A stretch of DNA of 64,000 bases from Streptosporangium sp. NPDC087985 (GCF_044741965.1 NZ_JBIUTQ010000007.1:1-64000); one strand, 5' to 3'; shown: positions 30,036 to 53,035, numbered from the stretch's first letter. Program-made: numbers and translations. Notes: generated by a model from the sequence alone, not told the origin.

Positions 30036-30385
30036 CTGTGTGGTGCGGGGTTTTCGCCGTGCGCGCTGCGGTGGGTGTGCTGGTTTGCCGGTGTTCGCGC
30101 TGCGGTGGGCGGGTGTTCCGGCCGGCCGTCTCAGTTGCGGCCCGGTGTTTCAGGCCTCCGGCCTGGCGGGCGCGACGGTCGCGGTCCTTTGATACGCCGG
30201 CCGGAACACCCACCCACCTCCGCGCCACGCCTGCCTCGCCGTACGGCCCGCACGCCGTAGCCGCTCGCTTCCGGGCCGCCCAGCGGGCTCACTGACGCTG
30301 AAGCAATCCGTTCGAGGCCGTTCAGGTTGATCGCCGTAGCTGAAGCCTCACCGACGAAAGGAGCGCATGGCGGGGCGCCTTATTA
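30036..30385. repeat. copy 1 of a ~350-bp dispersed repeat with internal palindromic sub-repeats (MITE/REP-like)
   Basis: About 95% identical to the reverse complement of 52635..53035. It contains sub-units cgcgctgcggtgggYgggtgttccggccgg in direct and inverted orientation. Confidence 0.8.
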
Positions 30386-30464
30386 TCACTACTTTTCGTT
30401 ATGACGTTGTTGCAGTGCGTTGCGAACGGCCGTGGACGCGGCCCGACAGGCACCGGAGGTGCCC

Positions 30465-30932
30465 ATGCGACGTATCAGAACCAGAGTAGGCATTCCTGCG
30501 GCGGCGGCACTGCTCGCCCTTCTTACCGTGGCCCCACCCGCCGTGGGAGAGCAGGCCGGCGGGGCGACCTCGCGTGCCGCGGCCGAGGACGCCTACTTCG
30601 AGTTCGCCGCCCCGCCGAACTCCAAGGAGTTCGTCATCAAACTCACCGACCCCGTCATGATCCGGAATGCCAGGGACATCCTGAGCGGTAAGGAGACGAA
30701 CGCGGTCCATGTCATGGGGAGAATCGTCAAGCGCCCCGCCCCGTACAACCCCGGCTGGAGCTTCTCCTACGACCCGGCGACGATCTCGTTCTTCGCCTTC
30801 GCCATCGAGGTGTGCGACGCGTCGACGATGTACGTCGAGGACCACCTCGACGAGGCGGGTGGCGCGTTCCTGCCCGGCAACTTCTGGTGCCCCTGGTCCT
30901 CGCGACTGACGCGGGAGATCCCGGCGCCGTGA
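30465..30932 (+). CDS. secreted hypothetical protein
   Basis: The ATG follows GGAGGTG. Signal peptide [28 protein letters not shown]. 155 aa with no recognisable family. Confidence 0.55.
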
Positions 30933-31216
30933 GGCACCGCGCGGCGGACCGGCCTCGCGCACGCGAGGCCGGTCGCGGCCGGTGGAGCGGACCAGACTAC
31001 GGGCCGACGGCGCTCTCCTGGTCTTGTGCATGAAGGTTCCGCGTCCGCCACGGTGGTGCCAGATTCTCTGGCCCTCACATCACGACCACCACCCCGCCGG
31101 CACGTGCCTTTCCGGCCATTGCAGGGCCGAGAAGGGCCGAGGGGTAGGGCTGGGCGGGACTGACGGCAGGTGACAGCCTTGTCGGGGGGATGCCTGTCGG
31201 CCGGTGGTCGTCGTGG

Positions 31217-31705
31217 TCAGTTACGTGGGGTTGGGGTGTGGGGGAGGTGGAACCAGACGGCGTTGCCGGCATGGTCGTGTTGGTGGGTGCCCCAGGCGGT
31301 GGCGAGGAGGTCGACCAGGAGCAGGCCGCGTCCGCCGTCGCTGTCGAGGTCGCCGGCGCGGATGAAGGGCAGGCTGGTGGCCGAGCCGTCGTCGATGACC
31401 TCGATGTGGACGGTGGTGGCGTCGGTGCCGATACAGATCATGACTGAGCCGTTGGGGGTCCGGCCGGAGTCGGAATGGAGGACGGCGTTGGTCATGACCT
31501 CGCTGAGGAGGAGCGCTACGTCGTCGAGGGTGAGGTCGCTGGTTCTGCCTGTCAGGAGGTCGCGGGTCCACTGGCGGGCGGTGGCGACGGCGGTGGGGGC
31601 GGCGGAAAACTCGGCGTGGCCGAGCAGGTGCAGGGTGGCCCAGTGGGTGGAGATGGCCTGGTGACGTTCATAACGGCAAACGGCCGTCTGTCCTGGGGTC
31701 TTCAT
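31217..31705 (-). CDS. HATPase_c (RsbW/anti-sigma-kinase-like) ATP-binding protein partner of the XRE-DUF397 module
   Basis: 162 aa. LSEVMTNAVLHS...GGRGLLLVDLLATAWG has the N-box and G-box of GHKL ATPases. It is divergent from the XRE gene. Confidence 0.65.
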   Translation of the reverse strand: MKTPGQTAVCRYERHQAISTHWATLHLLGHAEFSAAPTAVATARQWTRDLLTGRTSDLTLDDVALLLSEVMTNAVLHSDSGRTPNGSVMICIGTDATTVHIEVIDDGSATSLPFIRAGDLDSDGGRGLLLVDLLATAWGTHQHDHAGNAVWFHLPHTPTPRN

Positions 31706-32242
31706 GCGATCGCTGCCGAGACGATGACGTCGGCGACGTTGTCGGCTTCGGCGCAGATGCATTGGCCGGGGCGCCAGAGCCGCGCCCACCAGGGCCTCCA
31801 GACGAAGACCCAGCCACGGGCGTGGCGGGCGGCGGTGATGCGGATACGCCGGTCGCCTGCGGACAGAACCTCCAGAACCGGTGGTCCGCTGGTGGGCAGC
31901 ACCAGTGAGGTGCCGACGCCGAGGACTCTGAGGTCCCAGCCCAGCCGTACCAGATAAATGAACTGCTCTTGTGGCGGGTTGCGCACGTCCATAGCTCGGC
32001 TCCCGAGTTTGCTGGCATACGACGGGTGGTCCCACGGGGTGAACGTCAGCCGCGCGGCTTTTCGAGGTCACAGGCATGTGACTCTTGGTTTCCAACTGTT
32101 CACACGTGGTGTACCGACATGATGGGCGCAACCCGGGCTGTCCGGCAATACGAATGTCAATATTGCCAATATGACGATGGGAGCTTGCCCAACCTCGCAG
32201 GGTGACGGCAGACTTGCGATCTCGACTCAGGGGAGAGCCAGC

Positions 32243-33103
32243 GTGGGCGCCGAGCAACCAGCTACCATCCGAACTCGAAGGCTGGCGACCGAACTGCGCC
32301 GCCTACGGGAAATCGCCGGCCTGACGGGCGATCAAGCGGCCAGGTCACTGGGGTGGAACCCTTCCAAACTCAGCCGTTATGAGACAGCCACAAGGCGGGT
32401 GCAGCCGAAGGATCTCCAGGCACTTCTCGACCTCTACGCACTCCCCGAAGACAGACGGCAGGACCTCGTGGACCTGGCGAAGAACGCCCGGTTCAAAGGG
32501 TGGTGGGACGCTTACGGCGACACGTTTCCCACTGAACTCGCCACTTACATCGCCTTGGAAGCTGAAGCTGCGGCGATCCGGGGGTTCTCAGCTCAGATCG
32601 TTCCGGGAATGCTCCAAACGGACGAGTACGCGCGGTCCGTCATCCGCTCCGGTCTGATGGATCTTGCACCCCGAGGTGAGACCGAGCGTCGGGTGGAAGC
32701 ACGCAAGACCCGGCAAAGGCTCCTCAGGAGGGAGGTCGGCCCTCTCGATTACTCGGTCATCATGAGCGAGGCGGCCTTGCGGAACAGGATCGGCTCTTCG
32801 GAGGACATGCGCGCTCAGTGCCGCCATCTGATGGACCTGGCCCAGCTCCCCAACGTGACCGTCCAGATCATCCCCTTCACTTCCGGCGCTCACCCCGCGA
32901 TGGCGGGAACCTTCTCCATCCTCAGTTTCCCTGCCCGCTACGACGAGGACGTGGTCTACATCGAGACCATGACCAGTAACCTCTGGGTAGAGGACGAAAA
33001 TGACGTACACCGCTATACACTCGTATTAGATCATCTTCGCACGATTGCCTACGGGATCGATGAATCCCTCTCTTTCCTGGCGACGATGGCCGACCAGCTT
33101 TGA
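32243..33103 (+). CDS. XRE-family HTH regulator with DUF5753 (Scr1-type)
   Basis: The GTG start follows GGGGAGAG. RRLATELRRLREIAGLTGDQAARSLGWNPSKLSRYE is the HTH. The DUF5753-like C-terminus is typical of the Streptomyces XRE/DUF397 pairs. Confidence 0.8.
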   Translation: MGAEQPATIRTRRLATELRRLREIAGLTGDQAARSLGWNPSKLSRYETATRRVQPKDLQALLDLYALPEDRRQDLVDLAKNARFKGWWDAYGDTFPTELATYIALEAEAAAIRGFSAQIVPGMLQTDEYARSVIRSGLMDLAPRGETERRVEARKTRQRLLRREVGPLDYSVIMSEAALRNRIGSSEDMRAQCRHLMDLAQLPNVTVQIIPFTSGAHPAMAGTFSILSFPARYDEDVVYIETMTSNLWVEDENDVHRYTLVLDHLRTIAYGIDESLSFLATMADQL

Positions 33104-33132
33104 TCATCGATCTGTTGGAAGGGAGCCGCGGG

Positions 33133-33366
33133 ATGCCCTCCGAGCAAGCCGTGTGGCGGACCAGCAGCTTGAGCGCCAACGGTGCTGACTGTGTACAGGT
33201 CGCCGTGGTCGATGGTTCCAGCACCTCAGATCGCGAGGCAGGTACCAGCCTGTTTCTGGTCCGCGACTCCAAGAACCCCGACGGCCCCCGGCTCCGATTC
33301 AGCCCTGACGGGTGGGCGGTCTTCGTCGACGGCATCAAAGCCGGCGATTTCGACAGCCTTGGATAA
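33133..33366 (+). CDS. DUF397 protein (Scr2-type)
   Basis: WRTSSLSANGADCVQVA...DSKNPDGPRLRF...WAVFVDGIKAGDFD. The ATG lies 7 nt after GGAAGGGAG. It sits immediately after the XRE gene. Confidence 0.75.
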   Translation: MPSEQAVWRTSSLSANGADCVQVAVVDGSSTSDREAGTSLFLVRDSKNPDGPRLRFSPDGWAVFVDGIKAGDFDSLG

Positions 33367-33984
33367 TCGCCTTACCTGGCGGATGGCGGTAGGGGGCGAG
33401 GTTGCGCTCCCAGCGGCGACGGCCCTCTGTTCGGCTTATCTGAGCTCCCGGCAGGACACCGGAGGCCTCAGAGTCTGACAGAGATGGCTGGGAGCGCTCG
33501 CCGAGCAGCTCGAACAGCACTACGGCAGCGCCTACACCCTGATCGCCTATCTCAAGGGCACTGGCGGGAAGCTGATCCGCCGACTGGTCCGCAACGGTGC
33601 GTTGCTTTCGATGGTCGACCAGGTCCACTGGAAACTGCTCGCTGATCTGCTGGGAATCTCCGACAACGCCGCCGCCTCTAGGGGCCCAGGACGACTCCAC
33701 CCCTCGTGAGCTGGGGGTGGCTTCCCAATGCCGTCACGGCCTTGGCCTTGTCCTTCATGACGCCGTCCTCGGCACGAGGAACGATGGCTCGGCATGGCTC
33801 GCGACGCACTCGGCCGCGACCGTCGCCCTCGGCCTGTACCTGCGAAGAGGGCGGCGGTCGATCCTGCTACATGAGCAGGCCGGTGAGATCCGTTTGATCA
33901 TGCATAGGCCGCTGTCCCGGCCGGGCCTCCATGATGCAGACAGAGTCTGGTCACGTACGGAGAGAGCGACAGGGCGGACCTGTC

Positions 33985-34021
33985 GGTGCTTCCACGTGAG
34001 ATCACCTCACGTGGAAGCACC
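33985..34021. other. perfect 16-bp-stem palindrome (ggtgcttccacgtgag-atcac-ctcacgtggaagcacc) spanning the PepSY gene stop
   Basis: Read directly. It is probably the terminator/3' stabiliser of the minus-strand PepSY gene. Confidence 0.6.
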
Positions 34022-35425
34022 GGCGGACCCCCTGGACGGCCTTCCCCTGAGTAGTCCGAGCAGCACGTCGACGACGAGGAATGCGGCCAGGGAGATCCCG
34101 AGGAGCGGCAGGAACAGCCCGACCGCCACGGCCACCGCAGCCAGAGCCGGAAGCACGGCCCGAGGGACCTGCCGCCACGTGCCGCGGGGATAGGGACGGC
34201 CGAAGCGTTTCTGGGTGGGACGGCGCTGCCACCACATGCGGTAGCCGTACACGATGAGGAAGACGAGCCCGATCGCCAGCGCGCCCACGACGATCTGGTT
34301 GGCCAAGCCGAACAGCAGGCCCATGTGGCCGTCGATACCCCAGCGGGTGAGCTTGGCGGCCAGCGGGAAGTCGGCGAAACGCAGTTCGTCGGTGACCTGG
34401 CCGGTGGCCGGGTCGACGGCGACCTGGTCCAGCCGCTGCGGCCACTCCTTGTCGATCTCCTTGACCACGTAGGCGTCGGCGGGCTTGCTCGGCCAGACGA
34501 TTTCCAGCGGCCCGGACAGCCCCTTGCCCGCCGCGGCCTGGACGATCTGGTCCACTGAGGCGTCTTCAGCGGATTCGGAGGGCATGTGCCCCGCGTGGTC
34601 CGCGTGATCGCCGGTGGCGGCGGAGACCGAGGGCGTCGTCCAGCCGAGCGCCGCGCGCAGCTCGTCGACGTTCTCGCCCGCGTACTTCGACCAGGTCAGC
34701 CCGGTGGCGGACAGGAAGAGCAACCCTGCGGCCACCCACAGGCCCACTGATCCGTGCCAGGACAGTGTGCGCCGCCGCCCGGTGAGCGTGCGGTCCGGTG
34801 CGATGATCGCGCGCAGCCGGCGTACGGGGCGGCGGCGGCCCAGCCACAGCAGGACGCCGCCCAGCGCCACCACCCACAGCCAGCTGGCGGCGAGCTCACT
34901 GTAGATGCGTCCTGGTTCACCAAGGAGCAGGGTGCGGTGCAGGTTGGAGATCCAGGTGCGCAGCGGCAGCGCACCGGAGCTGCCGTAACTCTCTTCTGCG
35001 CCGCGGATCTGTCCGGTGTGGGGGTCGACGAAGACGGCCAGCCGGAGCCCTTCCTCCAGTTCGGGCACGTTGAGCAGGACCTGTGTGGTCCTGCCGGGCT
35101 CGGCCGGCGTACGGACGGCGCTGATGGTTCCTTCGGGGTGGGCGGCCCGGGCGGCGGTGATCTGCTGGGACAGCGGCAGTGTGGTCGCCCCGACCGGCGC
35201 GGTCAGCTCGTGAGCATAGACCAGTCTCTCCAGCTGGAAGGAGGTCGCGTACAGCAGTCCGGTGGTCGCGGCCACCAGCAGGAACGGCGCGATGAGGATT
35301 CCGGCGTAGAAGTGCAGGCGCAGCACCAGCGGGCGGATCGCCGCCCAGCCGGACCGCCTGGACGAGGCGGACGCATCGGGATCGGGAGAGACTCGGGCGG
35401 GCTGGGTCTCAAGGTCGGATGTCAT
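34007..35425 (-). CDS. PepSY-associated TM-helix membrane protein
   Basis: 472 aa. It has multiple TM helices (HFYAGILIAPFLLVAATTGLLY, WLWVVALGGVLLWLG, GLVFLIVYGYRMWWQRR) and a His-rich periplasmic segment. RBS GGAGAA is present. Confidence 0.8.
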   Translation of the reverse strand: MTSDLETQPARVSPDPDASASSRRSGWAAIRPLVLRLHFYAGILIAPFLLVAATTGLLYATSFQLERLVYAHELTAPVGATTLPLSQQITAARAAHPEGTISAVRTPAEPGRTTQVLLNVPELEEGLRLAVFVDPHTGQIRGAEESYGSSGALPLRTWISNLHRTLLLGEPGRIYSELAASWLWVVALGGVLLWLGRRRPVRRLRAIIAPDRTLTGRRRTLSWHGSVGLWVAAGLLFLSATGLTWSKYAGENVDELRAALGWTTPSVSAATGDHADHAGHMPSESAEDASVDQIVQAAAGKGLSGPLEIVWPSKPADAYVVKEIDKEWPQRLDQVAVDPATGQVTDELRFADFPLAAKLTRWGIDGHMGLLFGLANQIVVGALAIGLVFLIVYGYRMWWQRRPTQKRFGRPYPRGTWRQVPRAVLPALAAVAVAVGLFLPLLGISLAAFLVVDVLLGLLRGRPSRGSAGAST

Positions 35426-35503
35426 CGGGATGTTTCTCCGTTTTACAGGGATGTGCAAGCCGACAGGCACACATCACCAAGGCAGGGGCAAACGAGCCGG
35501 AAG

Positions 35504-36042
35504 TCACGGTTGGGTCCGATCCCAGGCGATGGACAGGGAGTCGACGCCGTAGACAATCGAGATCTTCCGGAAGGCGATCTCCTCGGCCGGTACGGCCAGG
35601 CGCAGGGTGGGGAAGTGGCGCAGCAGCGCGGGGGAGGCGATGCGCATCTCCATCTGGGCTAGCGGCGCGCCGACGCACCGGTGGATGCCGTGCCCGAAGG
35701 CGAGATGGGAGACCACCTCGCGGCCGGGGCGGCGCTGTCGATGCCTGGGCCGAGCGCGGGGTCGCGGTTGGCTCCGGTCAGCGAGCACAGCACCATCGGT
35801 CTTTGCGTTCGCGGGTGACCAGCTCCGTTAGGTAGGCCATCAAGTCGTTGACCGCCTGGAGTGAGACCTCGGGGCCCGCGGAGAGGTCGAACCGGTCGGT
35901 GCTCAGGCGCAGGAAGTCGGCGCGGTCGGCGTAGGGCACGCCCAGCAGCTCGCAGACCACCAGCGAGGGGATGGGGAGCGCGAAGGACTACATCAGGTCG
36001 GCCGGGGAGCCTGATCTCTCGGGGGAATTCTGTTTCTGACAT
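35504..36042 (-). pseudogene. cytochrome P450 3' remnant (frameshifted, N-terminal ~60% missing)
   Basis: Three frames carry successive P450 C-terminal motifs: ELLGVPYADRADFLRL, ANRDPALGPGIDS (ANRDP...FPDP-like), and the heme loop FGHGIHRCVGAPLAQME. Lower-GC non-coding DNA lies upstream (36043-36369). Confidence 0.7.
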
Positions 36043-36369
36043 CGATCAGATCCTCATCGTCATGCAGTCGGGCGCCGTGGCGCTGGTGGGGGCGTCGGAC
36101 CCGCGAAGAGCCGGACACCCTCCTCTTTCAGGGCTTTACGGTGCACAAACTCACGACATCAGTAGTCGTATCAGGACTAGAGGTAGTTCCAGATCTGCAT
36201 CAATGGTTGTAGATCGCACCCGGCAGCCCCTCAGGGGAGAGAATCGAGCGATGGGAGCGCAACGGTCTTCGCTGCCTCCACGGCCGGACATCCGCGTCCG
36301 ACGCTCTGGTTCCAGCGAAGGGTTGACGGAAGCCGGGTGCGATATCGCGGTGAAAGGGCTTGAACTCTG

Positions 36370-37578
36370 TCAGGCGAGGAGAGTCTCTCCGATCCATCCG
36401 CCGGCGGAGCAGCCCGGCGGGATGGCGAACACGGCCGAGCCGATCGGGGTCGTCCACTCGTTCAGCAGGTCGCCCTCGGCCAGTCTCTTCTGGACGGGAA
36501 TGAACTGCCGGGTGATGTCGGCCTGGTAGGAGGCGAACAGCAGTCCGGAGTCGGCGTGTCCTTCGGGGGTGAGTCCTTCGTCGTAGTTGTAGACCCGGCG
36601 CAGGATCCGCATGCCCGGGTCTGCGACGTGGGCCCGGCGGATGTGGGCGTATTCGGAGATGACCGGGAAGCCGAGCGCGTTCAGCCTGTCGAAGTCCGGC
36701 TCGTCGTGCTCCTGCTGCCCGGTCAGCGGGGCGCCGGTGTCCAGGCGGCGGCCAACCGTGAACTCCTTGGCCACCCGGTCGGCGGCGTCCCACGTCTCCA
36801 GCCCCATGCGGATGCGCCGCAGCACCAGGGTGGTGCCGCCGCGCAGCCACTGCGGGCCGTCGTTGACCCAGATGGCCCGGTCGAAGTCGGGCGTGCCCGG
36901 TTGAGGGTTGACGGTCCCGTCGAGCTGGCCCATGAGGTTGCGCTGGGTCATGCCGGGAGCCATGGTGTGCGCGCTGCGGCGGAATCCCCGCTGGGTCCAG
37001 CGCACCCGGGCGAAGGAGCGGGCGTCCTTGACCGTCATACGCAGGGCGTGGGCGAGGGTGACGGCGTCGTCGGCGCAGATCTGCAGCAGCAGGTCCGCAC
37101 CGGTCCACCGCTTCTCCAGCTTGTCGATCACGAACCCCGGAAGGGGCGCTATCGACTCCGGCCGCTGGTCCTCCACTCCGGCTGCCCTGAAAAGGCCGGG
37201 GCCGAAGCCGAAGGTGACGGTCAGCCGGGAGGGGAGCGTGGCCAGCTCCGGTTCGGTGTCGGCCAGGGCGGCCCGGCCCTCGGTCAGGCGGCGGGCGTCG
37301 TCGGTGAGCAGGCGCATCATGCGTACGGCGGCTTCGCGGCCGGTGTCCGGTAGCAGGTCCAGGCCGACGAACACGGCGTGAGCCTGCGGGATCGTGGCGA
37401 TCCCGGCCTGGTGGACGCCGTGGAAGGGCTCGGTGGCCGAGCCGTCGGGGAGCGGGGGAGCGGTTTCGGACGTGGTCGTGGATATGGCCTGCTGGGGGGC
37501 ATATGCCACGAGGGCACCGGCCGCTGCGGCGGCGCCCCCCGTGAGCAAGCCCCGCCGTGTCAGTCGGGGTTGCCGCAT
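36370..37578 (-). CDS. Tat-secreted DyP-type peroxidase (EfeB/deferrochelatase-like)
   Basis: Twin-arginine leader MRQPRLTRRGLLTGGAAAAAGA. The Dyp signature is present (FGFGPGLF, RxxxGF...D). Its ATG overlaps the PCuAC stop (TGATG). Confidence 0.85.
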   Translation of the reverse strand: MRQPRLTRRGLLTGGAAAAAGALVAYAPQQAISTTTSETAPPLPDGSATEPFHGVHQAGIATIPQAHAVFVGLDLLPDTGREAAVRMMRLLTDDARRLTEGRAALADTEPELATLPSRLTVTFGFGPGLFRAAGVEDQRPESIAPLPGFVIDKLEKRWTGADLLLQICADDAVTLAHALRMTVKDARSFARVRWTQRGFRRSAHTMAPGMTQRNLMGQLDGTVNPQPGTPDFDRAIWVNDGPQWLRGGTTLVLRRIRMGLETWDAADRVAKEFTVGRRLDTGAPLTGQQEHDEPDFDRLNALGFPVISEYAHIRRAHVADPGMRILRRVYNYDEGLTPEGHADSGLLFASYQADITRQFIPVQKRLAEGDLLNEWTTPIGSAVFAIPPGCSAGGWIGETLLA

Positions 37579-38138: not shown

Positions 38139-38324
38139 GTTGATGCCTTTCTTCTGGCTGTGCCTGCAGGCCGCGGCCGAATGCCGCCTCGATGTGGCCA
38201 TGCCGGACAGACAGCCGGGATTGTCACGCTGATTCGGTCCACCGAGCAGCCGGATGGCGGCATCGGCGCAGGCCCGCGCATGCGGGCTCGGGAACGAAGT
38301 AATGCCTCCGAGTGACCTGGGCGG

Positions 38325-44291: not shown

Positions 44292-44568
44292 GACAGAACT
44301 CACGATGGTCGTTCCTTGCATCGCAGGGCAGAACGGATACACGGTTCGGGGGGTGCGTGGCCCCTGTTGGACTGGTTGAGGAGGCAGGGGCACGGGAGGG
44401 CAGGCGTCGGGAAAGGCGGCCCACGGGGCCGGAGCGTGTAGGGCGGCGCAATGGCCCCAGTGACGGGTCGCATCACCCAGCCCACTCCGATGGGAACCCC
44501 GGCGGGCCCATGAGCGACTGTCTGATGCGCGGTTGTCGTGTGGACCCCGCCGGCAGAAGGAGATGGCG

Positions 44569-45759
44569 ATGCGGCTGGAACGACCGGTAGGTCCTGCGAG
44601 CGATCGGGTCCGGGAGCGATGGGTCACCGTCCTGCTCACCACGGCCATGGGCGTGTCGATGCTTCAGCTCTTCCTGATCGGTGCGCTCGGTCCCCGCCTG
44701 GTCGGGGAGGCGGGCATCTCCCGCACCGCGATCGGCCTGACCACGACCGCCGGATTCGGCGTCGCCGCGCTCCTGTCGCTCACCGCCGGCCGCTGGGTGG
44801 ATCGGCTGGGGGCCCGCCGTTGCCTGGTCGCACTGCTGCTGCTGGCCGCGGTGGCACTGGCACTGATCGGCTCCGCCTCGGGCACGCTGATGCTGCTGGT
44901 GGCGGTGGCGCTGGGTGGCCTCCCGCAGGCCCTGGCCAACCCCGCCACCAACAAGGTCATCCTGGCCACGGTCGAACCGGGCAGGCGAGGTGCGGTCACC
45001 GGCTGGAAGCAGTCCGGAGTGCAGCTCGGCGCTTTCGCGGCGGGACTGCCGCTGGCGGCGCTCGCCGCATGGACGGGATGGCGCGGCGCGGTATGGACAG
45101 CCGCCGTGATCGCCGCCCTCATCGCGTGCTGGGCCATCCGCGTGCTGCCATCCGACTCCACCGCCGCCGCGGCCACGCCACCCGCGGACATGCCGCGCGC
45201 CCGCGTCGGCCGGTTGGCGCTGTTCTCCTTCCTGCTCGGCTGCGGGATCGCCGCGGTGAACACCTACCTTGCGCTGTTCGGTGCCGAGCGGCTGGGACTG
45301 GGACCGGTCGTGGCGGCATGGTTGGTCGCGGTCCTGGGTCTCACCGGAGTCGCGGGCCGGGTCGGCTGGTCGCGGCGGGCGGGCCGCCTCGACCGGGCCG
45401 AAGTGCTTCTCGTCCCTCTCGCGGCGGGAGCCTGCGGAGCGGTCCTGCTGCTCGGAGCAGCCTCGTGGGTTCCCTTCCTGGTCTGGGTGGGCGCGGCGGC
45501 CGTCGGAGCCTTCGCCGTCGCGGGTAATGCGGTCACCATGGTCTCGGTGATCAAGCGCGCCGACCCCCGCAGCGCCGGCCGGGACTCCGCGCTCGTCTCG
45601 GCGGGATTCTTCGCCGGTTTCGCCGCCGGGCCGCCGCTGTTCGGGATCCTCGTCGAGATCGGGGGATACGGACCGGGCTGGGGGCTGGTGGCCGCCGAGT
45701 TCGCCGCTGCGGCCGCCGTCGCGGCGCCGCTCCGATTCCGGGCCGGGGCACTCCGATGA
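44569..45759 (+). CDS. MFS transporter
   Basis: 396 aa with 12 predicted TM helices and a GRWVDRLGARR-type loop. The ATG lies 6 nt after AAGGAG. Confidence 0.8.
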   Translation: MRLERPVGPASDRVRERWVTVLLTTAMGVSMLQLFLIGALGPRLVGEAGISRTAIGLTTTAGFGVAALLSLTAGRWVDRLGARRCLVALLLLAAVALALIGSASGTLMLLVAVALGGLPQALANPATNKVILATVEPGRRGAVTGWKQSGVQLGAFAAGLPLAALAAWTGWRGAVWTAAVIAALIACWAIRVLPSDSTAAAATPPADMPRARVGRLALFSFLLGCGIAAVNTYLALFGAERLGLGPVVAAWLVAVLGLTGVAGRVGWSRRAGRLDRAEVLLVPLAAGACGAVLLLGAASWVPFLVWVGAAAVGAFAVAGNAVTMVSVIKRADPRSAGRDSALVSAGFFAGFAAGPPLFGILVEIGGYGPGWGLVAAEFAAAAAVAAPLRFRAGALR

Positions 45760-46781
45760 GCTGGGCGGAGAAGGCGCTGCTTGAGGTTCTGGAGCGGTCC
45801 GGCACGGTCGAGGCGGATGCGGGAGGGCGATGGCCGCTGTATGCGGACCCCGTCTCCGGCGGCTGGACGACCACCGCCCGCGGATCATGGACCGGTGGTT
45901 TCTGGACGGGACTTCTGTGGCTGCGAGCGATCATGAGCGGTGATCCGGCCGACCGGGCCACCGCGATCAGCCGCACCGCATCGCTCGATCCGTGGATCTG
46001 GGCCGACACCGGAGCCCGAGGCCTCATCTTCTGGTACGGCACCGCGTTCGGCGTGGCAGAGGGGGACGCCCTGGCGGCGACGCTGCGAGAGCGCGCGGCC
46101 GGTGCCTGCCTGGACGCCTATGTCCCCGAGCTCGGGCTGGTGCCCTGGGGCGGCGCGTTCGGCGGTCCTCGGGAGCTGGCGCGCGTCGACGGCCTGCCCG
46201 GCCTCATGCAGCTCCTCCGTCTGGCGGGTCCTGACGGAGCCGTGGCCGCCCGGACCCAGCTGGACCTGCAGTTCGCTCTGACGGCAGGTGAGCGCCAGCT
46301 CCGCCCGGCCTGGCAAGCCCTGCCGGACGGCACCTGGGAACCCCACCTCGCCCTGCCGCCAGGCTGGAGCCGCACGGCGGCCTGGCTGTCGCTGGCGGTC
46401 GCCGACACCGGCGACGGCGATCGGCGGCGGGCACTGCTCGCACATCCCCAGGTGGCGGCCCGGTTCGCTGCACGCTCGCCCGCCGTCCCCTGCGCACGCC
46501 CCGGCGGGCCACCGGACACCTCGGCCGCTGCGATCGAGGCAGTCGCCGCTCTCAAACTGGCCGCGCGGGCCGATCAGCATGAAGCCGCCCGGCTGCGGGA
46601 CCGGGCCGCCGCCGTGCTCCGCGAGCTGGTCTCGGCACACCTGCGTGACGGCCGCCTGCTGGACGGCTGCTATGACCTGGACCACGGCATGGCCACCTGC
46701 CATGAGCTGGTGTGGGGCGACTTTTTCCTGGCTGTTGGCCTCGCGGTGCTCACCGGGGCGATCGATCCTTTCGCCTGCTGA
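45756..46781 (+). CDS. glycoside hydrolase family 88/105-like (unsaturated glucuronyl/rhamnogalacturonyl hydrolase-like) protein
   Basis: GGWTTTARGSWTGGFWTGLLWL matches the GH88/GH105 N-terminal signature. ATGA overlap with the MFS gene. Family assignment is tentative. Confidence 0.55.
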   Translation: MSWAEKALLEVLERSGTVEADAGGRWPLYADPVSGGWTTTARGSWTGGFWTGLLWLRAIMSGDPADRATAISRTASLDPWIWADTGARGLIFWYGTAFGVAEGDALAATLRERAAGACLDAYVPELGLVPWGGAFGGPRELARVDGLPGLMQLLRLAGPDGAVAARTQLDLQFALTAGERQLRPAWQALPDGTWEPHLALPPGWSRTAAWLSLAVADTGDGDRRRALLAHPQVAARFAARSPAVPCARPGGPPDTSAAAIEAVAALKLAARADQHEAARLRDRAAAVLRELVSAHLRDGRLLDGCYDLDHGMATCHELVWGDFFLAVGLAVLTGAIDPFAC

Positions 46782-47196
46782 ACGCTGTGGCCAGGGTGTG
46801 AGCGACGGCCTCGCCCAGACGGTCTGGCAAGCGCGGACAGTGCCAGGCGACGTGGTCGTCAGGCCGGATCAGGACGGCGCCGTCGGCCGCGATGCCGTAG
46901 ACGGCGGCGATGTCCGCGTCGCCCACGTGCACCAGCAGGGGCACACCTGCCGGCGCCGCCTCTTGCCAGGCCGCTCCGTCCGGTCCGGTCAGCAGGGTGA
47001 AGCCGGTGCCCACGAGGTCGAGCGTGGAGACCTCGCGTCTGTCATGGCGTGTCCTACTGAGCGCCCGGTCCTTGGGAAAGGCCGAGGCGGCGGAGTGCCG
47101 CTCGACCAGCAGAGAGGGCACGCCGAAGCGCGACAGCGCGATGGACGCGCACAGGCCGACCGGTCCGCCGCCGACGATGAGCACGGGGATGTCCAC
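46750..47196 (-). pseudogene. internally deleted FAD-dependent monooxygenase (148 aa instead of ~400)
   Basis: The N-terminal FAD motif MDIPVLIVGGGPVGLCASIALSRFGVPSLLVER is joined after ~50 aa to the extreme C-terminal motif ...GAVLIRPDDHVAWH. Confidence 0.55.
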
Positions 47197-47251
47197 GTGT
47201 CTTCCTCCTGAGGAGGGTGGGGCGGCCAGGATGGCCGCCCCACGAGACCGG

Positions 47252-48040
47252 TCAGCCGAGAGCGGCGGTGATGGCGTCGGCGTTGGCCTTGTACATGGCG
47301 ATCAGGTCCAGCCCCTGGTCGGGGAAGTTGTCGATGACCACGCGCTTGGCCTCGACATTGGCGAGGGCGTCCCCGCCGGGCATGGCCGAGTTGTCCAGCA
47401 CCAGCCGGGGCTTCTTGGCGGCCAGCTCGGAGATCTGACCGGCGGTGGGCGGCTGCGGGCCGTACACCCCGGCGGGCTGGACTCCGGTCAGGTCGGCGGC
47501 CCAGGCGACGAACGCCTGCGCGACGATCACCGGTGCGATGCCCTCGGCGGCGCCGGTGACCTTCTCCTTCATCGCGGCGTACTCGGTGTCGAAGGTCGCG
47601 GTCCACGCCTTGGCCGCTTCCGCGGTGCCGAACTCCCCGCCCAGCCGCGCAACCTCGGCTCTGACCTTGTCGGGAGTGTTGTCCAGGGACACCTCGATCA
47701 GCTTGGCCTTGGATCCGGCGGCCTCCTTGAGCTTGCCGGCGAAGCCCTCGAAGGCGGCGTACAGCACCACATCGGCCTGGGCGACCTTGACCAGGTCGGA
47801 GGGCTTGGGATCGTAGTCGGGGGCGTGGTGCACGCCGGGCGGCACGATCACCGTGATATCGGTCGCGCCCGCGGCCTTGGCGAATCCCGCCTCCCAGGTG
47901 GAGGCTGCGACAACCTTCAGCCCCTTCGCCGTCGGTGAGGGTGCCGCGGAGGTGCTTTCCCCGGTGCCTCCGCAGGCGGCCATGGCCACGGTGGTGATGA
48001 CGGCCACGGCCGTGAGACGGAGCCGGCGCATTGTAATCAT
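47252..48040 (-). CDS. metal (Zn/Mn/Fe) ABC transporter substrate-binding lipoprotein, TroA/ZnuA family
   Basis: Lipobox AMAACGG. The LKVVAASTW...VVLYAAFEGF architecture is typical of cluster A-I SBPs. Confidence 0.8.
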   Translation of the reverse strand: MITMRRLRLTAVAVITTVAMAACGGTGESTSAAPSPTAKGLKVVAASTWEAGFAKAAGATDITVIVPPGVHHAPDYDPKPSDLVKVAQADVVLYAAFEGFAGKLKEAAGSKAKLIEVSLDNTPDKVRAEVARLGGEFGTAEAAKAWTATFDTEYAAMKEKVTGAAEGIAPVIVAQAFVAWAADLTGVQPAGVYGPQPPTAGQISELAAKKPRLVLDNSAMPGGDALANVEAKRVVIDNFPDQGLDLIAMYKANADAITAALG

Positions 48041-48852
48041 TTCGCGAGAACTCTTTCTGGGATCGAATGGAGCAGAACAGTGCAGACCCCGCCGACCAGC
48101 ACCAGCACCGGACCGGGGGGGAAGTCGAAGAGCAGGGCGAGGAAGAAGCCGCCGATGTTGAAGGCCAGCCCGAAGACGACCGACCAGCCGACCATCGCCG
48201 GCAGTGACCGGCCGACCCGGCGGGCGGCCAGGGCGGGCAGCAGGGTGAGCGCGTCGACCAGCAGCGCCCCGGTCAACCGGATGGCCGAGGCGATCGCCAC
48301 CGCGATCACCACCAGCAGGATCAGGGTGAGCCGCTCCACCGCGACCCCGGAGCAGACGGCCAGCTCCCGGTCGTGCAGGAGCAGGGCCAGGTCTTTGCGG
48401 CGCAGGCCGTACAGGACCGGGACGATCACCGCCAGCGCGGCGAGCGCGACCACGTCGCCGGGGCGGGTGGCCAGGATCGACCCCCACAACAGCTCGAACG
48501 CCCCGTTGGCGTTCACCCCGGAGATCGACAGCACCAGCAGCGCCGCCGCGATGGCCAGCGTCATCAACAAGCCCATCGCACCCGACAGCCCCGCGCTGCT
48601 ACGGGCCAGTGGGGTGAGCGCGCCGCCGGTCACAGCGCACAGCACCAGCGCGCACAGCAGCGGGTCCAACCCGGTCAGCAGGCCGATCGCGATGCCCAGC
48701 AGCGCGACGTGCATCATCGCGAACCGGACCGGCATGATGTCCAACCCCACGATGAACACCCCGACGATCGGCAGCGTCACCGAGCCGAGCAGCAGCGCCA
48801 GCAGGGCCAGCCGGACCGAGGGGATCTCCAGCAGTGTCCAGACCGAGTTCAC
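48037..48852 (-). CDS. metal ABC transporter permease (ZnuB/MntB-like)
   Basis: 271-aa polytopic ABC-3 family permease. ATGA overlap with the SBP gene. Confidence 0.85.
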   Translation of the reverse strand: MNSVWTLLEIPSVRLALLALLLGSVTLPIVGVFIVGLDIMPVRFAMMHVALLGIAIGLLTGLDPLLCALVLCAVTGGALTPLARSSAGLSGAMGLLMTLAIAAALLVLSISGVNANGAFELLWGSILATRPGDVVALAALAVIVPVLYGLRRKDLALLLHDRELAVCSGVAVERLTLILLVVIAVAIASAIRLTGALLVDALTLLPALAARRVGRSLPAMVGWSVVFGLAFNIGGFFLALLFDFPPGPVLVLVGGVCTVLLHSIPERVLAK

Positions 48853-49535
48853 CGGACCTCCCGCAACCGCCCGGCGGCCATCTCGGCCACCCGCCCGCAG
48901 GCCTGGGCGACCGCCCGGTCATGGGTGACCACCACCACGCTCACCGGCAGGCCGGCCAGCACCGCCGCCACCTGCTCCTGACCGGCGAAGTCCAGCGCCG
49001 CGGTCGGCTCGTCGGCCAGGACCAGCCCTGCTCCGGCCGCGACCTGCCCCAGCGCCCGCGCCAGGTAGGCCCGCTGCAGCTGGCCCCCCGACAGGGCGGC
49101 GAGCGGGCGTTGCAGCAGTTCGGCCACCCCCAGCTCCTCGGCTGCGGCCAGGGCCTGTTCGAGGTGGCGGCTACTGGCCAGCAGCTCGCGTACCAGCAGC
49201 GGGAAGCGTCCGGCCGCCTGCCGTTGCGGGATCCAGGCGACTTCGGTGCGGCGGCGGGTCCAGTCGGACGGCCCGCGCGCCTGCCGGCCCGCGACCTCGA
49301 TCAGCCCGCTTGTCCGGCGGTGCAGGCCAAGGACCGCGCGCAGCAGCGTGCTCTTGCCGGAGCCGTTGGTGCCGGTGATCGCCAGGTGTTCACCGGGGGC
49401 GAGCGTCAGGTCAACTCCGTCCACCGCGAGGAGCCGGCCGTGCCGACAACTCACCGCCGACAGGCGCAGGCCGGCGGCGTTCACCGGGGAATCTGTGTTC
49501 ACCAGGGGATCAGGGAGGGGAATGGGCATGGGCAT
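48849..49535 (-). CDS. metal ABC transporter ATP-binding protein (ZnuC-like)
   Basis: Walker A GTNGSGKST, signature LSGGQLQR, Walker B LVLADEPTAALD. ATGA overlap with the permease. Confidence 0.85.
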   Translation of the reverse strand: MPMPIPLPDPLVNTDSPVNAAGLRLSAVSCRHGRLLAVDGVDLTLAPGEHLAITGTNGSGKSTLLRAVLGLHRRTSGLIEVAGRQARGPSDWTRRRTEVAWIPQRQAAGRFPLLVRELLASSRHLEQALAAAEELGVAELLQRPLAALSGGQLQRAYLARALGQVAAGAGLVLADEPTAALDFAGQEQVAAVLAGLPVSVVVVTHDRAVAQACGRVAEMAAGRLREVR

Positions 49536-49625
49536 ACTCCGGCCGGGGGTGAGGGTACGGCGACAGCCGGGCGGAGCCGATCCACCCGGAAAAGCGGTAA
49601 GGGAAGGCCGGCCGGTCCTGAGGGA

Positions 49626-50189
49626 TCAGCCGGAGACGGGCGACGGCACAGGCGGCCCACGCCGGCTCACCGCGTGGCGGAGCAACGCAGGCCGGAGGAT
49701 CTCCGCAGCGAGGCAATCCGCGCGCCCTGCTCCGGGCAGCGTGTGCACCACTCCGGAATAGTTCACCAGCAGGCGGCACAGACGGACGGCAAGGCGGCCC
49801 AGCACCGCCCACAGGGCGGCCTCACCTCGCGCCAGCCACAGCGCGGTCAATGCCGCGGCCCAGCCGTGCATCACCAGCATGCCCAGGCCGGGCACCAGCC
49901 CGGAGCGACCATGGCCGCCCATCTCGGCCAGCGGCGCAAGGCTGGGTGCCGCCGACAGCAGCAGGTGCAAGGCCACCTGCACTCCTGTCAGCAGCGGCAG
50001 GATCACGCCCGTGCCACGTTCACGGCCGGTCGCGGGCAACGCCACGACGAAGGCCACCACCAAACCGCATGCGGCCGTCCGAACGCTGACCACGCCACCG
50101 GCGAAGAGGTGGGCGACGACGCCCAGCACGAGGCACGCTACGGCGAAGACAGCGGCCCGAGCGACGCGGAGAGGTAAGCCGAGGAGCAT
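49626..50189 (-). CDS. His/Met-rich polytopic membrane protein, paralog 2 of 3
   Basis: GLVPGLGMLVMHGWAAALTALWLARGEAALWAVL...LLRHAVSRRGPP. It sits directly upstream of the metal ABC operon. Confidence 0.6.
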   Translation of the reverse strand: MLLGLPLRVARAAVFAVACLVLGVVAHLFAGGVVSVRTAACGLVVAFVVALPATGRERGTGVILPLLTGVQVALHLLLSAAPSLAPLAEMGGHGRSGLVPGLGMLVMHGWAAALTALWLARGEAALWAVLGRLAVRLCRLLVNYSGVVHTLPGAGRADCLAAEILRPALLRHAVSRRGPPVPSPVSG

Positions 50190-50199
50190 AACAGGAAGA

Positions 50200-50493
50200 T
50201 CATTCCGTGGTGCCGGGGCGGCTCCGGCGTGAACTCCGGAACCAGACAGTCACACCGATCATCACCAGCGCGACGAGCCCGCCCCAGATCCACCCCGGAA
50301 CACCCTGAGAGGTGCCCTGGCTGTCGGCCGCCGACACCGGGGCCGCTGCCACCGGAGCGGGCGAGACCGCCGCCGGGCGAGGCGACGAGGAGACCAGCGC
50401 GGCGGGCGCGGCGGGCGCGGTGAGCATGAGGAACAACCCGCAACTAAGTGTCGCCAGAACCGTTCTGCGGATGAAGCGTGGCAGATATGCCAT
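50200..50493 (-). CDS. small secreted Ala/Pro-rich protein with C-terminal TM anchor
   Basis: 97 aa. Signal MAYLPRFIRRTVLATLSCGLFLMLTAPAAPA, then a PA-rich segment, then the C-terminal GWIWGGLVALVMIGVTVWF + RSSRRSR. GGAG RBS. Confidence 0.45.
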   Translation of the reverse strand: MAYLPRFIRRTVLATLSCGLFLMLTAPAAPAALVSSSPRPAAVSPAPVAAAPVSAADSQGTSQGVPGWIWGGLVALVMIGVTVWFRSSRRSRPGTTE

Positions 50494-50616
50494 CACAGGC
50501 TCCAGAAAAGACTCCCGGGCCGTGTTTCTGGCGCGGCCGGGTAAGGAAGGACGCTTCCGTGCGAAAGGAGAGCGTCTGGTCACGGGGCACGCCGGCCACC
50601 GGACCCTCCAGGTCCC

Positions 50617-51183
50617 TCAGCCGACGCGTTCCAGCGCGGGCGGGCCACGCCTGCGGAGCGCCGGGGAGATCTCCCAGCCGCCGTACGGCCGGACATCGCG
50701 AGCCGCTACGGCCTGCCAGATGGGTCGCGGTGTTTCGGCGGCGGTGATGACGAACAGCCGGATCACCGGCATCCGCATGCCGTACAGGCGGATCATGAGC
50801 CAGAGCGCGCTCTCGCCGCGATGCAGCCACCACCCCGTCAGCAACGCCACCACAAGATGGACAACCATCATGCCCAGACCGAGATGGCCGTGATCGGCGG
50901 AGAGCCCCATGTGCGGTGTCGGCGCGGCACGGGTGAACAGTTCATGTAGCAGAATCTGCGTTCCGGCGGTCGCGGGAAGCACGACTTCCAGGCCGCGCTC
51001 ACGTCCGTTGAGCGCGTAGGCCAGGCAGAAGGCGACCACCGCACCGAGAAGTCCCAGATGCGGGGGGACCAGCCCACCGCCGGCCAGGGCGTGGCCACCA
51101 GCGGAGACCACGAGGCACAACGTCGCGAAGACGAGTGCTCGCAGCACGCGGAGCGCCGACGCCACTGGGGTCATAAGGGACAT
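50617..51183 (-). CDS. His/Met-rich polytopic membrane protein, paralog 3 of 3
   Basis: HGHLGLGMMVVHLVVALLTGWWLHRGESALWLMI...ALRRRGPP has the same architecture as the other two paralogs. Confidence 0.6.
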   Translation of the reverse strand: MSLMTPVASALRVLRALVFATLCLVVSAGGHALAGGGLVPPHLGLLGAVVAFCLAYALNGRERGLEVVLPATAGTQILLHELFTRAAPTPHMGLSADHGHLGLGMMVVHLVVALLTGWWLHRGESALWLMIRLYGMRMPVIRLFVITAAETPRPIWQAVAARDVRPYGGWEISPALRRRGPPALERVG

Positions 51184-51301
51184 CCTTGCAGTCGGCCCGC
51201 TCGGGGAGAAGACCGATATCTCGAATCCTTCACCGCTACCGGAATGCGGGCTAGTGCTCCGGGCTTCAGCCCGGAGGTGAAGGCCCGCGCGTGAGTGCCC
51301 G

Positions 51302-51619
51302 CTAGGGCGCGAGCGTGCTCTGGACCGGGCGGTTTTGCTGCTCGATGTACTGGCGCACGATCGACAACGGTGCGCCGCCGACGCTCCCGGCGAAGTAGGA
51401 GCCCGACCACAGCTTGTTGCCCCGGTAGTAGTGGGCGGCCAGCTCGGGGAACTCTTGTCGCATCCGCCGGGACGCCACGCCCTTCAGCGAGTTGACCAGC
51501 TTGGACAGGGCGACCTTGGGCGGGAAGTCGACCAGCAGGTGGACGTGGTTGACTCCGCCGTTGAACTCGGCCAGCTCGGTCTCGAAGTCGGCGCACACGT
51601 CCCTCATGATTTCTTCCAT
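51302..51619 (-). pseudogene. IS200/IS605 TnpA (Y1 HUH transposase) remnant lacking the N-terminal ~45 aa
   Basis: IMRDVCADFETELAEFNGGVNHVHLLVDFPPKVALSKLVNSLKGVASRRMRQEFPEL...LWSGSYFAGSVGGAPLSIVRQYIEQQ carries the HuH motif and the C-terminal Tyr helix. Confidence 0.7.
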
Positions 51620-52201
51620 TTGGAGAAGAAGTCGGCCCGCCGGCGTGCGGCCCGGCCGAAGAAGACCCGCCCCTCGGGGCGGGAGCAGCGCACCTACGAC
51701 CAGATCGCCCGGCTGCGCGCGAAAGCCAAGCGCCGAGCCGTCGACTGGCAGCACCAGACCACCACCGAACTCGCCGACACGTTCGCTGTGATCAAGGTGG
51801 AGAAACTCGCCATCCTCAACATGGTCACATCCGTCAAGGGCACGATCGAGGCCCCGGGCAGGAACGTCGCCCAAAAGGCGGGCCTGAACCGGTCGATCAG
51901 CGGCGAGGCGTGGGGCCGGACCGTCACCCTGCTCGAATACAAGACCACCGACCGGGGCGGACAGGTCATCAAGGTCCCCGCCCCAGGCATCTCACAGACC
52001 TGCCACCGATGCGACCACCGCGATGCGGCCAGCCGCAACGGAACCGTGTTCGCCCGCGTCAACCCCGCGTGTGGGTGGGTCGGCCACGCCGACACCAACG
52101 CCGCGATAAACATCAACAACGCCGACGGATCAGCGGTGTCAGGACGTGGAGACCTCGGGGTTACCCGGTCGGTGAAGCGTCAACCCCCGCGCGCCGCTTA
52201 A
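51620..52201 (+). pseudogene. IS605-family TnpB (OrfB) remnant lacking the N-terminal half
   Basis: ...AQKAGLNRSISGEAWGRTVTLLEYKTTDRGGQVIKVPAPGISQTCHRCDHRD...CGWVGHADTNAAININ has the RuvC-III + zinc-finger motifs of TnpB. No start codon. It is followed (52205-52290) by the hairpin ccccggcc-ctcag-gccgggg typical of the IS right end. Confidence 0.7.
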
Positions 52202-52634
52202 CCGCGACGCGACGGGAGAATCCCCGGCCCTCAGGCCGGGGAGGGGGTCAACGGATCCCTCTGTCCCTCAATGAACGCTCGCAACTCCGAGGAGTTAAGC
52301 AGGCTGCCTACCCCTACCGTTTCACCGCAGAGGAGTCCCGGATTCTTCCTCGCAACGCGGACCGTGCTGGTCAGCAGCCGCCATCTGACCTGGGTACGGC
52401 CCTTCCCCCCCGTCTTCGGGGACTCGACGGCTGCGAGGCTGACCAGATGCTGAGCGGTGACGGGGAACCTGATGACGGCCGAGTTCGCCAGCCCGTGGGG
52501 CCGGCAGTGGGCTGCTCGGTTGCTCCACAGCGCGGATCGGCAGCACTTGACGACAGCGATCGGACACGCCGACCCCCACCCGAGGATGGACGGTAGCGAC
52601 CCGCCCAGGCCGCCCCTCACCCTTGAGACGCCCG

Positions 52635-53035
52635 TGCTTCCTACGGCGCCCGACCCTGCGCTCCTTTCAGAGGTGAGGCTTCAGCTACGGCGATCAACCT
52701 GAACGGCCTCGAACGCATTGCTTCAGCGTCAGTGAGCCCGCTGGGCGGTCCGGAAGCGAGCGGCTACGGTCTGCGGGCCGTACGGCGAGGCAGGCGTGGC
52801 GCGGAGGTGGGTGGGTGTTCCGGCCGGCGTATCAAAGGACCGCGACCGTCGCGCCCGCCAGGCCGGAGGCCTGAAACACCGGAGCGCAACCGAGACGGCC
52901 GGCCGGAACACCCGCCCACCGCAGCGCGAACACCGGCAAGCCAGAACACCCACCGCACGGACCAGAGGCCAAGCCGGAACACCCACCCACCGCAGCGCGC
53001 ACCAGGAACAGCCCCGAAAACGACTCAGACGCGGC
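52635..53035. repeat. copy 2 (inverted) of the ~350-bp dispersed repeat
   Basis: Reverse complement of 30036..30385, with an extra internal sub-unit (ccggaacacccacccaccgcagcgcgc). Confidence 0.8.

Follow-up and report, generated by a model that had tools for sequence, protein, structure and literature searches.

Inverted copies of a Streptosporangium intergenic repeat frame differing DNA at two chromosomal loci

In a 64-kb stretch of DNA from Streptosporangium sp. NPDC087985 (GCF_044741965.1, NZ_JBIUTQ010000007.1:1-64000; this whole stretch is referred to below as the window), two inverted copies of a structured repeat stand on either side of ~22.1 kb that is absent from S. album, the closest relative found. 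When aligned with related sequences, these two arms are members of a mosaic intergenic repeat family of ~300 nt that is specific to Streptosporangium and that we call E. Comparison among species shows, at two independent loci, a conserved E pair with differing DNA between the tails of its copies, from ~120 bp to 22 kb in length. We consider it probable that E pairs are the frames of recombination-prone slots, in which the copies interact by homologous recombination and gene conversion and have no transposase of their own.

Copies of the repeat in the window and anatomy of the family

A repeat search of the window returned a single long inverted pair, at 30067-30382 (+) and 52642-52957 (-), with arms of 316 nt that are 95% complementary and spaced 22,259 nt apart. 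A separate alignment agreed, with 16 of the 316 positions mismatched, which bears out the inverted pair of ~350 bp and ~95% identity described in a first-pass annotation of the window; the outer limits given there (30036-30385 and 52635-53035) were correct to ~10 nt. That annotation had also described internal direct and inverted sub-repeats, and these are present: allowing up to three mismatches, the sub-repeat CGCGCTGCGGTGGGYGGGTGTTCCGGCCGG occurs at six sites over both strands of the window (30096, 30197, 52798, 52899, 52970, and 54452), with 0 expected by chance (100 shuffles). Two of these sites lie in each full copy and pair as hairpin arms, giving a stem of ~30 bp that closes a 71-nt loop. 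A profile built from 48 family members identified exactly two full copies in the window, at 30088-30394 (+) and 52638-52935 (-), together with an extra head unit at 52973-53010 and a truncated copy at 54449-54488, and nothing else; the last match confirms the partial third copy that had been placed at 54440-54545. The copies, their parts, and the genes that adjoin them are as follows.

29035..30033, plus strand: GFO/IDH/MocA oxidoreductase gene (GFO), a conserved flank, with its stop codon 3 nt from the head of copy 1
30036..30394, plus strand: copy 1 (site A), 3' of the GFO gene
30036-30095, plus strand: head units of copy 1
30096-30125, plus strand: left arm of copy 1
30126-30196, plus strand: loop of copy 1
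30197-30226, plus strand: right arm of copy 1
30227-30394, plus strand: tail of copy 1, terminating in GAAAGGAGCGCATGGCGGGGCGCC
52638..53035, minus strand: copy 2 (site B), 3' of the KAS gene
52638-52797, minus strand: tail of copy 2
52798-52827, minus strand: right arm of copy 2
52899-52928, minus strand: left arm of copy 2
53045..54268, minus strand: beta-ketoacyl synthase (KAS) gene, with its stop codon ~10 nt from the head of copy 2
54440..54545, minus strand: truncated copy (site C), 3' of ORF201, a remnant of the head and left arm (54452-54481) only
54532..55137, minus strand: ORF201, a conserved flanking gene with no Pfam match and with the site-C copy after it in at least 10 genomes

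All three copies begin ~3-50 nt from the stop codon of a gene on the same strand (GFO, KAS, or ORF201). The head of copy 2 has one left-arm-like unit more than that of copy 1, at 52970-52999. At site C, S. album has a full copy, and the window has 87 nt (54411-54498) in place of the 610 nt of S. album. The sequence GGGCC(C)GCGTCTGAG is found both at the 3' end of ORF201 and just past the KAS stop codon, at the start of the copy 2 head (53020-53040 versus 54535-54550), and also in S. album; this sharing may be a trace of a site-B copy duplicated from site C with a few flanking bases.

The anatomy of the family was drawn from an alignment of 48 E copies. The head consists of one to several G/T-rich units of ~35-100 nt, variable in number, each of which opens with a copy of the left arm. 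It is followed by the hairpin, with arms of ~30 bp and a loop of ~70 nt that contains the invariant blocks GGCCTYCGGCC and CGGGCG, and then by a tail of 1 to 2.5 tandem units, ~125 nt each in some copies, in which the invariant or near-invariant blocks are CCGTAG, GCTGAAGC, and CGCCGTAGC and which ends in GGAGMGCAGGGCCGGGCGCCGTAG. CCGTAG is nearly invariant, occurs two or three times per tail, and does not abut the main hairpin. Elsewhere, what is conserved is a set of short sequence blocks with spacers of variable length between them. The head, left arm, and loop are strongly strand asymmetric over ~220 nt, with an A content of 0-7% and a G-C skew of +0.2 to +0.4. One stem position covaries among the 48 copies (T-A in 28, C-G in 16, and C.A in 4), and a second shows a double change to G-C in one copy; RNAalifold run on the same copies gave no supported structure in the tail and compensatory change in only 2 of 48 predicted pairs. 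The open reading frames (ORFs) of 72-76 aa that the repeats encode had been called spurious, a view that the alignment sustains, since family members differ by indels of 1-2 nt inside these ORFs.

The inverted repeat of E is internal, in that it makes up the hairpin, and the head start and tail end are unrelated, so that there are no terminal inverted repeats. The repeated unit also differs from the 20-40-bp palindrome of repetitive extragenic palindromic (REP) sequences, given arms of ~30 bp, a structured 71-nt loop, and a conserved unit of ~300 nt. The first-pass description of the repeats as structured, non-coding, and similar to REPs or miniature inverted-repeat transposable elements (MITEs) is supported. 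The hairpin is followed by CTCCGCGCC, with no U-tract. An intrinsic terminator scan detected no terminator-like site within either full copy; the lone match, at 53038-53026, straddles the outer edge of the copy 2 head and is at chance level (0.5 in shuffles). Likewise, a promoter consensus scan of E found nothing above shuffles. From its position just past stop codons and the asymmetry of the head, the hairpin with its head may act as a transcription stop or insulator.

We retrieved other copies with the exact arm 22-mer GGTGGGYGGGTGTTCCGGCCGG from a species-representative genome collection, which excludes the window's own genome. This search returned 56 genome loci, all in Streptosporangium except one in Micromonospora, which we rejected as a chance 22-mer. 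E is present in more than 20 Streptosporangium genomes, and S. nondiastaticum, S. pseudovulgare, and sp. NPDC048047 each have at least 10-12 exact-arm loci. There was one match in a metagenome scan (contig L065) and none in a viral contig scan, and blastn of the E unit against phage and plasmid collections gave no match. Rfam 15, at gathering and permissive thresholds, returned nothing relevant to E; the best sub-threshold match in copy 1 had an E value of 1.9. No description of the family was found in literature searches, and both the family and its paired "slot" arrangement appear to be new, although the kind of element is already known. The density of E is low, with 0 copies in the rest of the window and in the ~105 kb of loci L060-L064, which were fetched for other reasons. 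The first-pass annotation had raised the possibility of a ubiquitous REP, present in hundreds of copies and without a link to rearrangement. This holds in part, in that E is multicopy and genus wide; it fails in that E is not dense and is clearly associated with variable regions. The multiple copies for which the same annotation had proposed a search in related genomes were found. Insertion-site duplications, which it had also proposed to look for, were not: the three copies in the window and the matching S. album copies showed no target-site duplication, although the variable tandem boundary of the head could hide a short one. Several public draft contigs end within an E copy (L005, L044, L048, L052, L056, and others), and one of these, the 4.4-kb contig L056, has an inverted E pair at its two ends.

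Differing DNA between conserved pairs

Copies of E are oriented with respect to genes and to each other. Of 44 copies that could be scored, 32 (73%; p = 0.004) point the head at the 3' end of a gene in the same orientation, and gene orientation on the tail side is mixed (20 versus 15). Among the 52 full copies in fetched loci there were eight two-copy loci, and all eight are inverted pairs whose tails point at each other and whose heads point away. Of the 29 copies with at least 3 kb of sequence on the tail side, 8 have a partner within that distance; on the head side, none of 32 does (Fisher p = 0.0015). The metagenome contig L065 supplied a ninth inverted, tails-in pair. In six pairs, the genes between partners were ordinary and mutually unrelated: MerR/TipA; ABC-F and GNAT; an amidohydrolase; an aminotransferase; and GDPD with an FAD monooxygenase and TetR. 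In none of the cargo examined did we find a transposase or recombinase, save ordinary remnants of the insertion sequence (IS) family IS200/IS605.

The positions of the copies are conserved among species. An orthologous copy is present after GFO in seven other loci and after ORF201 in ten. At locus 1, to which the window belongs, the conserved frame is made by RF3-GFO at one end and ORF201 at the other; behind each of them stands an E copy that points its head at the gene. The second locus lies beside a sigma-70 family gene, and here back-to-back "empty" pairs, with 120 bp or 313 bp between the tails (L065 and L023), are found as well as filled ones. The contents of the two loci are listed below.

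Locus 1, sp. G11: one amidohydrolase between the E copies
Locus 1, S. nondiastaticum: GNAT, NmrA, DUF6204, TetR, KAS, YceI, and MarR
Locus 1, sp. NBC_01639: NmrA, TetR, a 110-aa ORF with no Pfam match, and KAS
Locus 1, S. album: a third copy (site B) after KAS, with a 305-aa MurJ-family gene between sites A and B
Locus 1, window: ~22.2 kb between sites A and B
Locus 2, sp. NPDC023615: GNAT, MarR, and a GH9 cellulase, with the right-hand copy missing
Locus 2, S. longisporum: a LuxR response regulator, a HisKA_3 kinase, and DUF6010
Locus 2, S. pseudovulgare and S. nondiastaticum: P450, TetR, and an abhydrolase

The amidohydrolase family found at locus 1 of sp. G11 also adjoins the site-A copy in sp. 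NPDC023963 and S. oxazolinicum, and S. pseudovulgare has the locus 1 frame and the KAS gene in common with S. nondiastaticum. The site-B copy is present in the window and in S. album and absent in sp. NBC_01639 and S. pseudovulgare, where the neighboring genes differ too. In other clades the KAS gene is itself cargo between sites A and C. S. roseum, sp. CA-135522, and S. lutulentum have KAS homologues with 85-88% identity in three unrelated neighborhoods without E, so that KAS is itself accessory and shifts its place from species to species. We had considered these three loci as comparisons for locus 1; they are paralogous contexts and were uninformative.

In the window, comparison with S. album (KAS protein 96% identical, flanking DNA ~92%) supports the proposal that the DNA between the repeats is an accessory segment, since the place of the ~22.2 kb is taken by 1,265 bp in S. 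album. Homology to S. album stops at 30349, within the copy 1 tail and ~45 nt before the start of the cargo, and resumes at ~52530, ~110 bp inside the end of the copy 2 tail. Because the spacer that adjoins this tail is common to both genomes, the right-hand boundary of the cargo falls ~110 bp inward of the tail end. The segment is composed of the following parts.

30395..52530: cargo between the two tails, ~22.1 kb, absent from S. album
30.4-38.9 kb: left cargo, 67% G+C, with BP74_N, HATPase_c_2, XRE-DUF5753 and DUF397, PepSY_TM, a P450 fragment, Dyp, and PCuAC
38924..51216: right cargo block, with ACAD, CoA-transferase III, AMP-binding, an ECF sigma factor, MFS, a degraded ZnuA, ABC-3, ABC_tran, and two unknown ORFs
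51302..52201: decayed IS200/IS605 element at the right cargo edge, with tnpA (Y1_Tnp) on the minus strand at ~51302-51625 and the C-terminal half of tnpB on the plus strand at ~51608-52201
52531..52637: spacer adjoining the copy 2 tail, common to the window and S. album

This segment is a strain-specific mosaic. For the BP74 gene of the left cargo, no homologue with more than 65% identity was found outside the source strain, and the 12-kb block at 38924-51216 is syntenic with an S. roseum-like genome at 90-92% and with sp. NBC_01469 at 83%. The description of the segment as rich in pseudogenes is likewise supported. The P450 fragment is a 94-aa C-terminal piece, the FAD monooxygenase at 46750-47196 is internally deleted, the in-frame Pfam match of the ZnuA gene is limited to the N-terminal third, and the IS200/IS605 element is a remnant in which tnpA and tnpB are divergent and both lack their N termini, a pattern that one deletion across their starts would give. 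Taken together, the comparison shows that the cargo segment was put together in several events.

Several further features of the window and of the fetched loci were recorded. The Y1_Tnp match near copy 2 was considered as a REP-associated tyrosine transposase (RAYT) and rejected, being a truncated IS200/IS605 tnpA beside a tnpB fragment; the only other Y1 match, at 250-2000 of contig L056, is a complete IS605-like element with tnpB and an in-frame stop in tnpA. An IS200/IS605 element thus lies a few hundred base pairs from an E tail at two unrelated loci, with differing orientations relative to E. We also rejected E as an IS200/IS605-derived palindrome-associated transposable element, as the profile matches in L056 are at the contig ends only and the IS-end hairpin (~320-350) is unrelated. 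Within the cargo there is a 170-nt direct repeat with 79% identity (38464-38633 and 49768-49937), located in two ORFs with no Pfam match, 38325-38906 (193 aa) and 49626-50189 (187 aa); the former lies exactly at the left edge of the 12-kb block, and the latter is part of that block. Two XRE(DUF5753) modules occupy patches of low G+C content (61-64% versus 70%), one in the cargo at 32171-33366, where it is followed by a DUF397 ORF, and one at 56071-57462, beyond ORF201 and outside the frame. Elsewhere in the window, inverted stretches at 13953-14658 and 26472-27168, ~12 kb apart and 73-79% similar, look like diverged paralogous genes; the S. album orthologue of the ORF at 26416-27312 is annotated as PP2C. 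A tRNA-Arg (CCG) gene at 9918-9992 is the sole Rfam or ARAGORN match in the window and the only one to reach an Rfam gathering score.

Sequence exchange among copies and explanations for the slots

The copies at locus 1 fall into subtypes that do not always follow position. The S. album copies at A and C belong to one subtype, with 87% identity to each other, and the site-B copy belongs to another, with 78-80% identity to A and C. Copy 2 of the window is the orthologue of S. album site B (94% identical). Copy 1, at the A-site position, has B-subtype sequence: the diagnostic blocks of type B run through all of it, and its identity is 82% with S. album A, 91% with S. album B, and 95% with copy 2. 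The two window arms are therefore 95% identical because the site-A copy carries the site-B subtype. Judged from these identities, copy 1 is a copy overwritten by B-type sequence after the split from S. album, by gene conversion from its partner or by a recombination event that would also have replaced the cargo.

More generally, E copies group with others of their clade and not with those at the same site. Identity between site A and site C is 0.87 in S. nondiastaticum and 0.98 in sp. G11, compared to 0.69 between the site-A copies of these two genomes. The median identity of non-partner copies from the same genome is 0.88, and the mean between genomes is 0.74; four of seven partner pairs reach at least 0.95, above the 90th percentile of non-partners (0.92). 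This pattern of identities is that of concerted evolution, and E copies thus do exchange sequence.

Our favored explanation, that E pairs probably frame recombination-prone slots, treats the copies as portable homology. By one route, the cargo would turn over through homologous exchange anchored in E copies, which predicts chimeric E copies, copy 1 being one. By a second route, a break would occur at the center of the large palindrome formed by E(+) and E(-), and end joining would then capture fragments of DNA. Long palindromes are fragile, and actinomycetes repair breaks by Ku/LigD end joining. The second route would fit the constant placement of cargo between the tails, the uneven tail lengths, the many gene fragments, and the lack of a recombinase and of duplications. 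The inverted homology of 316 bp could in addition allow the 22-kb segment to invert. A stronger version, which we regard as unlikely, is that head-out E pairs are a dedicated gene-capture platform in Streptosporangium, in which the palindrome or a motif-binding protein would direct breakage or recombination between the tails. Unrelated genes and fragments would then be inserted, swapped, and lost without an element-encoded recombinase, giving a cassette slot like those of integrons or pdif modules that works on a different principle.

Several observations weigh against the slot explanation. The case for a causal link of E pairs to cargo turnover is a correlation seen at two loci, and recombination at E is deduced from sequence comparison. 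The right cargo junction is not at the tail and is possibly the end of the IS200/IS605 remnant, which would mean that part of the cargo arrived by ordinary events. In the two other genomes that have it, the 12-kb block lies in other neighborhoods with no E within 10 kb, indicating that cargo moves without E frames. A preference for the 3' ends of convergent genes could alone yield many head-out pairs, and copies 1 and 2 have diverged by 5%, so that a conversion, if there was one, is not recent. Finally, the loci were retrieved by the exact arm 22-mer, so that the invariance of the arm is partly ascertainment bias and the per-genome copy number is a lower bound; the loop and tail blocks were not used in retrieval, and their invariance is informative.

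Some of these observations are what would be expected if E were a passive bystander, a repeat of the REP or terminator-like kind that sits 3' of convergent genes at island hotspots of an ordinary nature in which it has no part. We hold this explanation possible but doubtful. It accounts for the heads that face gene 3' ends in 73% of copies, for the stable orthologous occupancy across the genus, for the movement of a cargo block among E-free contexts, and for a right junction that falls roughly at the IS remnant and not at the tail. It does not account for partners on the tail side only (8/29 versus 0/32), for empty back-to-back pairs at a locus that holds 3-5 kb of differing cargo in other clades, or for the conversion of copy 1 to the subtype of its partner, which shows that copies recombine. 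The first-pass annotation had suggested instead that the repeats are the terminal inverted repeats of one decayed composite element. In its general form, the inverted pair would be the long terminal repeats of a non-autonomous E-cargo-E unit moved whole by a transposase encoded elsewhere. Every pair is inverted with tails inward, partner copies often have a higher identity than non-partner copies of one genome, copies 1 and 2 are of one subtype, the cargo is diverse and strain specific, and contig L056 is bounded by an inverted pair, all of which such a unit would produce. However, the chromosomal positions of pairs are shared by many species while the cargo differs, which is unexpected for a unit that moves whole. 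In the window, copy 1 and the truncated third copy are at positions that the family occupies genus wide, and the position of copy 2 is also occupied in S. album, where the two ends are of different subtypes (78% identical). No repeat-linked transposase was found, nor any in the cargo examined beyond ordinary IS200/IS605. The outer (head) boundaries are fuzzy tandem arrays with no recognizable target duplication, and the same cargo was never seen at two framed sites. A composite or cargo transposon is therefore quite unlikely, and the suggestion made for the window copies did not hold up.

Two further explanations concern the repeats themselves, and we give little credence to either. Inverted repeats of 316 bp at 95% identity are an adequate substrate for RecA-dependent homologous recombination, and the subtype conversion implies past recombination between the two copies, so that the 22-kb segment might be flipped by RecA and exist in both orientations in a population. 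No other genome was found with this cargo between these flanks, and its orientation could not be polarized because BP74 has no close orthologue and the 12-kb block is found elsewhere only in unrelated contexts. With no promoter-like or invertase-like feature and nothing to suggest regulated switching, an inversion switch is very improbable. We would be equally surprised if E were a structured non-coding RNA gene or cis-regulatory RNA repeated in the genome. Its strong folding (-187 kcal/mol; z = -2.8), the one covarying hairpin pair, and stem mismatches that are mostly C.A on the head strand, and hence G.U on the opposite strand, are consistent with an RNA. Against this, there is the scarcity of compensatory change (2 of 48 predicted pairs) with an unsupported tail structure, the lack of an Rfam match or of a promoter or terminator consensus, and conservation in the form of short blocks with variable spacers.

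Likeness to known repeats and significance for Streptosporangium

E works most like bacterial interspersed mosaic elements (BIMEs), or REP clusters, and like REPINs, the RAYT-mobilized hairpins formed by REP doublets: it is mosaic, palindromic, extragenic, and lineage specific. Like the BIMEs of Enterobacteria and Pseudomonas, it is a non-coding extragenic element in which a palindromic unit is combined with other motifs in variable unit number, it is multicopy and lies mostly just 3' of genes, and it has a GTAG-containing motif (CCGTAG, in the tail). One account of REPs gives them a conserved GTAG or CGTC tetranucleotide at one palindrome end (PMC3733652). E differs from BIMEs in its larger palindrome (30-bp arms and a 70-nt loop, versus 20-40 bp in total), in its unit of 300-450 nt, in the position of GTAG away from the main hairpin, in the tens of copies seen versus hundreds, and in its widely spaced head-out inverted pairs around genes; no RAYT was found in the loci examined. 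With REPINs, E shares a core of two inverted ~30-nt copies that form a ~130-nt hairpin and the similarity of copies within a genome. Unlike REPINs, it has long head and tail modules attached, no RAYT is evident in the loci examined, and the conservation of its positions across species argues against frequent transposition.

Other systems resemble E in arrangement more than in structure. MITE-flanked composites, such as the 439-bp MITE pairs around class 1 integrons in Acinetobacter, Tn3-derived inverted-repeat miniature elements (TIMEs), and integron mobilization units (IMUs), also consist of a pair of non-coding repeats, several hundred bp long, that brackets strain-variable cargo. These have terminal inverted repeats and target duplications and are derived from known transposons, whereas E has an internal hairpin, no terminal inverted repeats, no detected duplication, and pairs at fixed chromosomal sites; no autonomous IS related to E was found. 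The pdif modules of Acinetobacter plasmids likewise combine diverse, recombinase-less cargo with inversely oriented copies of one site. Those sites are 28-bp targets of XerC/D on plasmids, whereas E is ~300 nt, chromosomal, and without a recognizable Xer site. Correia elements of Neisseria and the enterobacterial repetitive intergenic consensus or intergenic repeat units (ERIC/IRU) are, like E, lineage-restricted, foldable intergenic repeats of 100-150 bp or more that are linked to rearrangement points; they are co-transcribed with neighboring genes. Correia elements differ from E in having terminal inverted repeats and TA duplications, E has no sequence in common with Correia or ERIC/IRU, and the paired slot arrangement is not described for them.

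Actinomycete chromosomes are known for their plastic accessory regions, but which features of the sequence determine the landing places of new genes is poorly defined. In Streptosporangium, a recognizable genus-wide repeat marks such places: between its conserved inverted pairs, some species have nothing and others have 1-20 unrelated genes. As repeats of 300 bp, E copies break short-read assemblies and can also lead comparisons of synteny astray. If the link between E pairs and cargo turnover is not causal, E is still a previously unrecorded repeat family with clear concerted evolution. If the link is causal, E would be a simple, searchable predictor of insertion hotspots and would provide a tractable system for recombination-driven gene gain in a genus rich in natural products.

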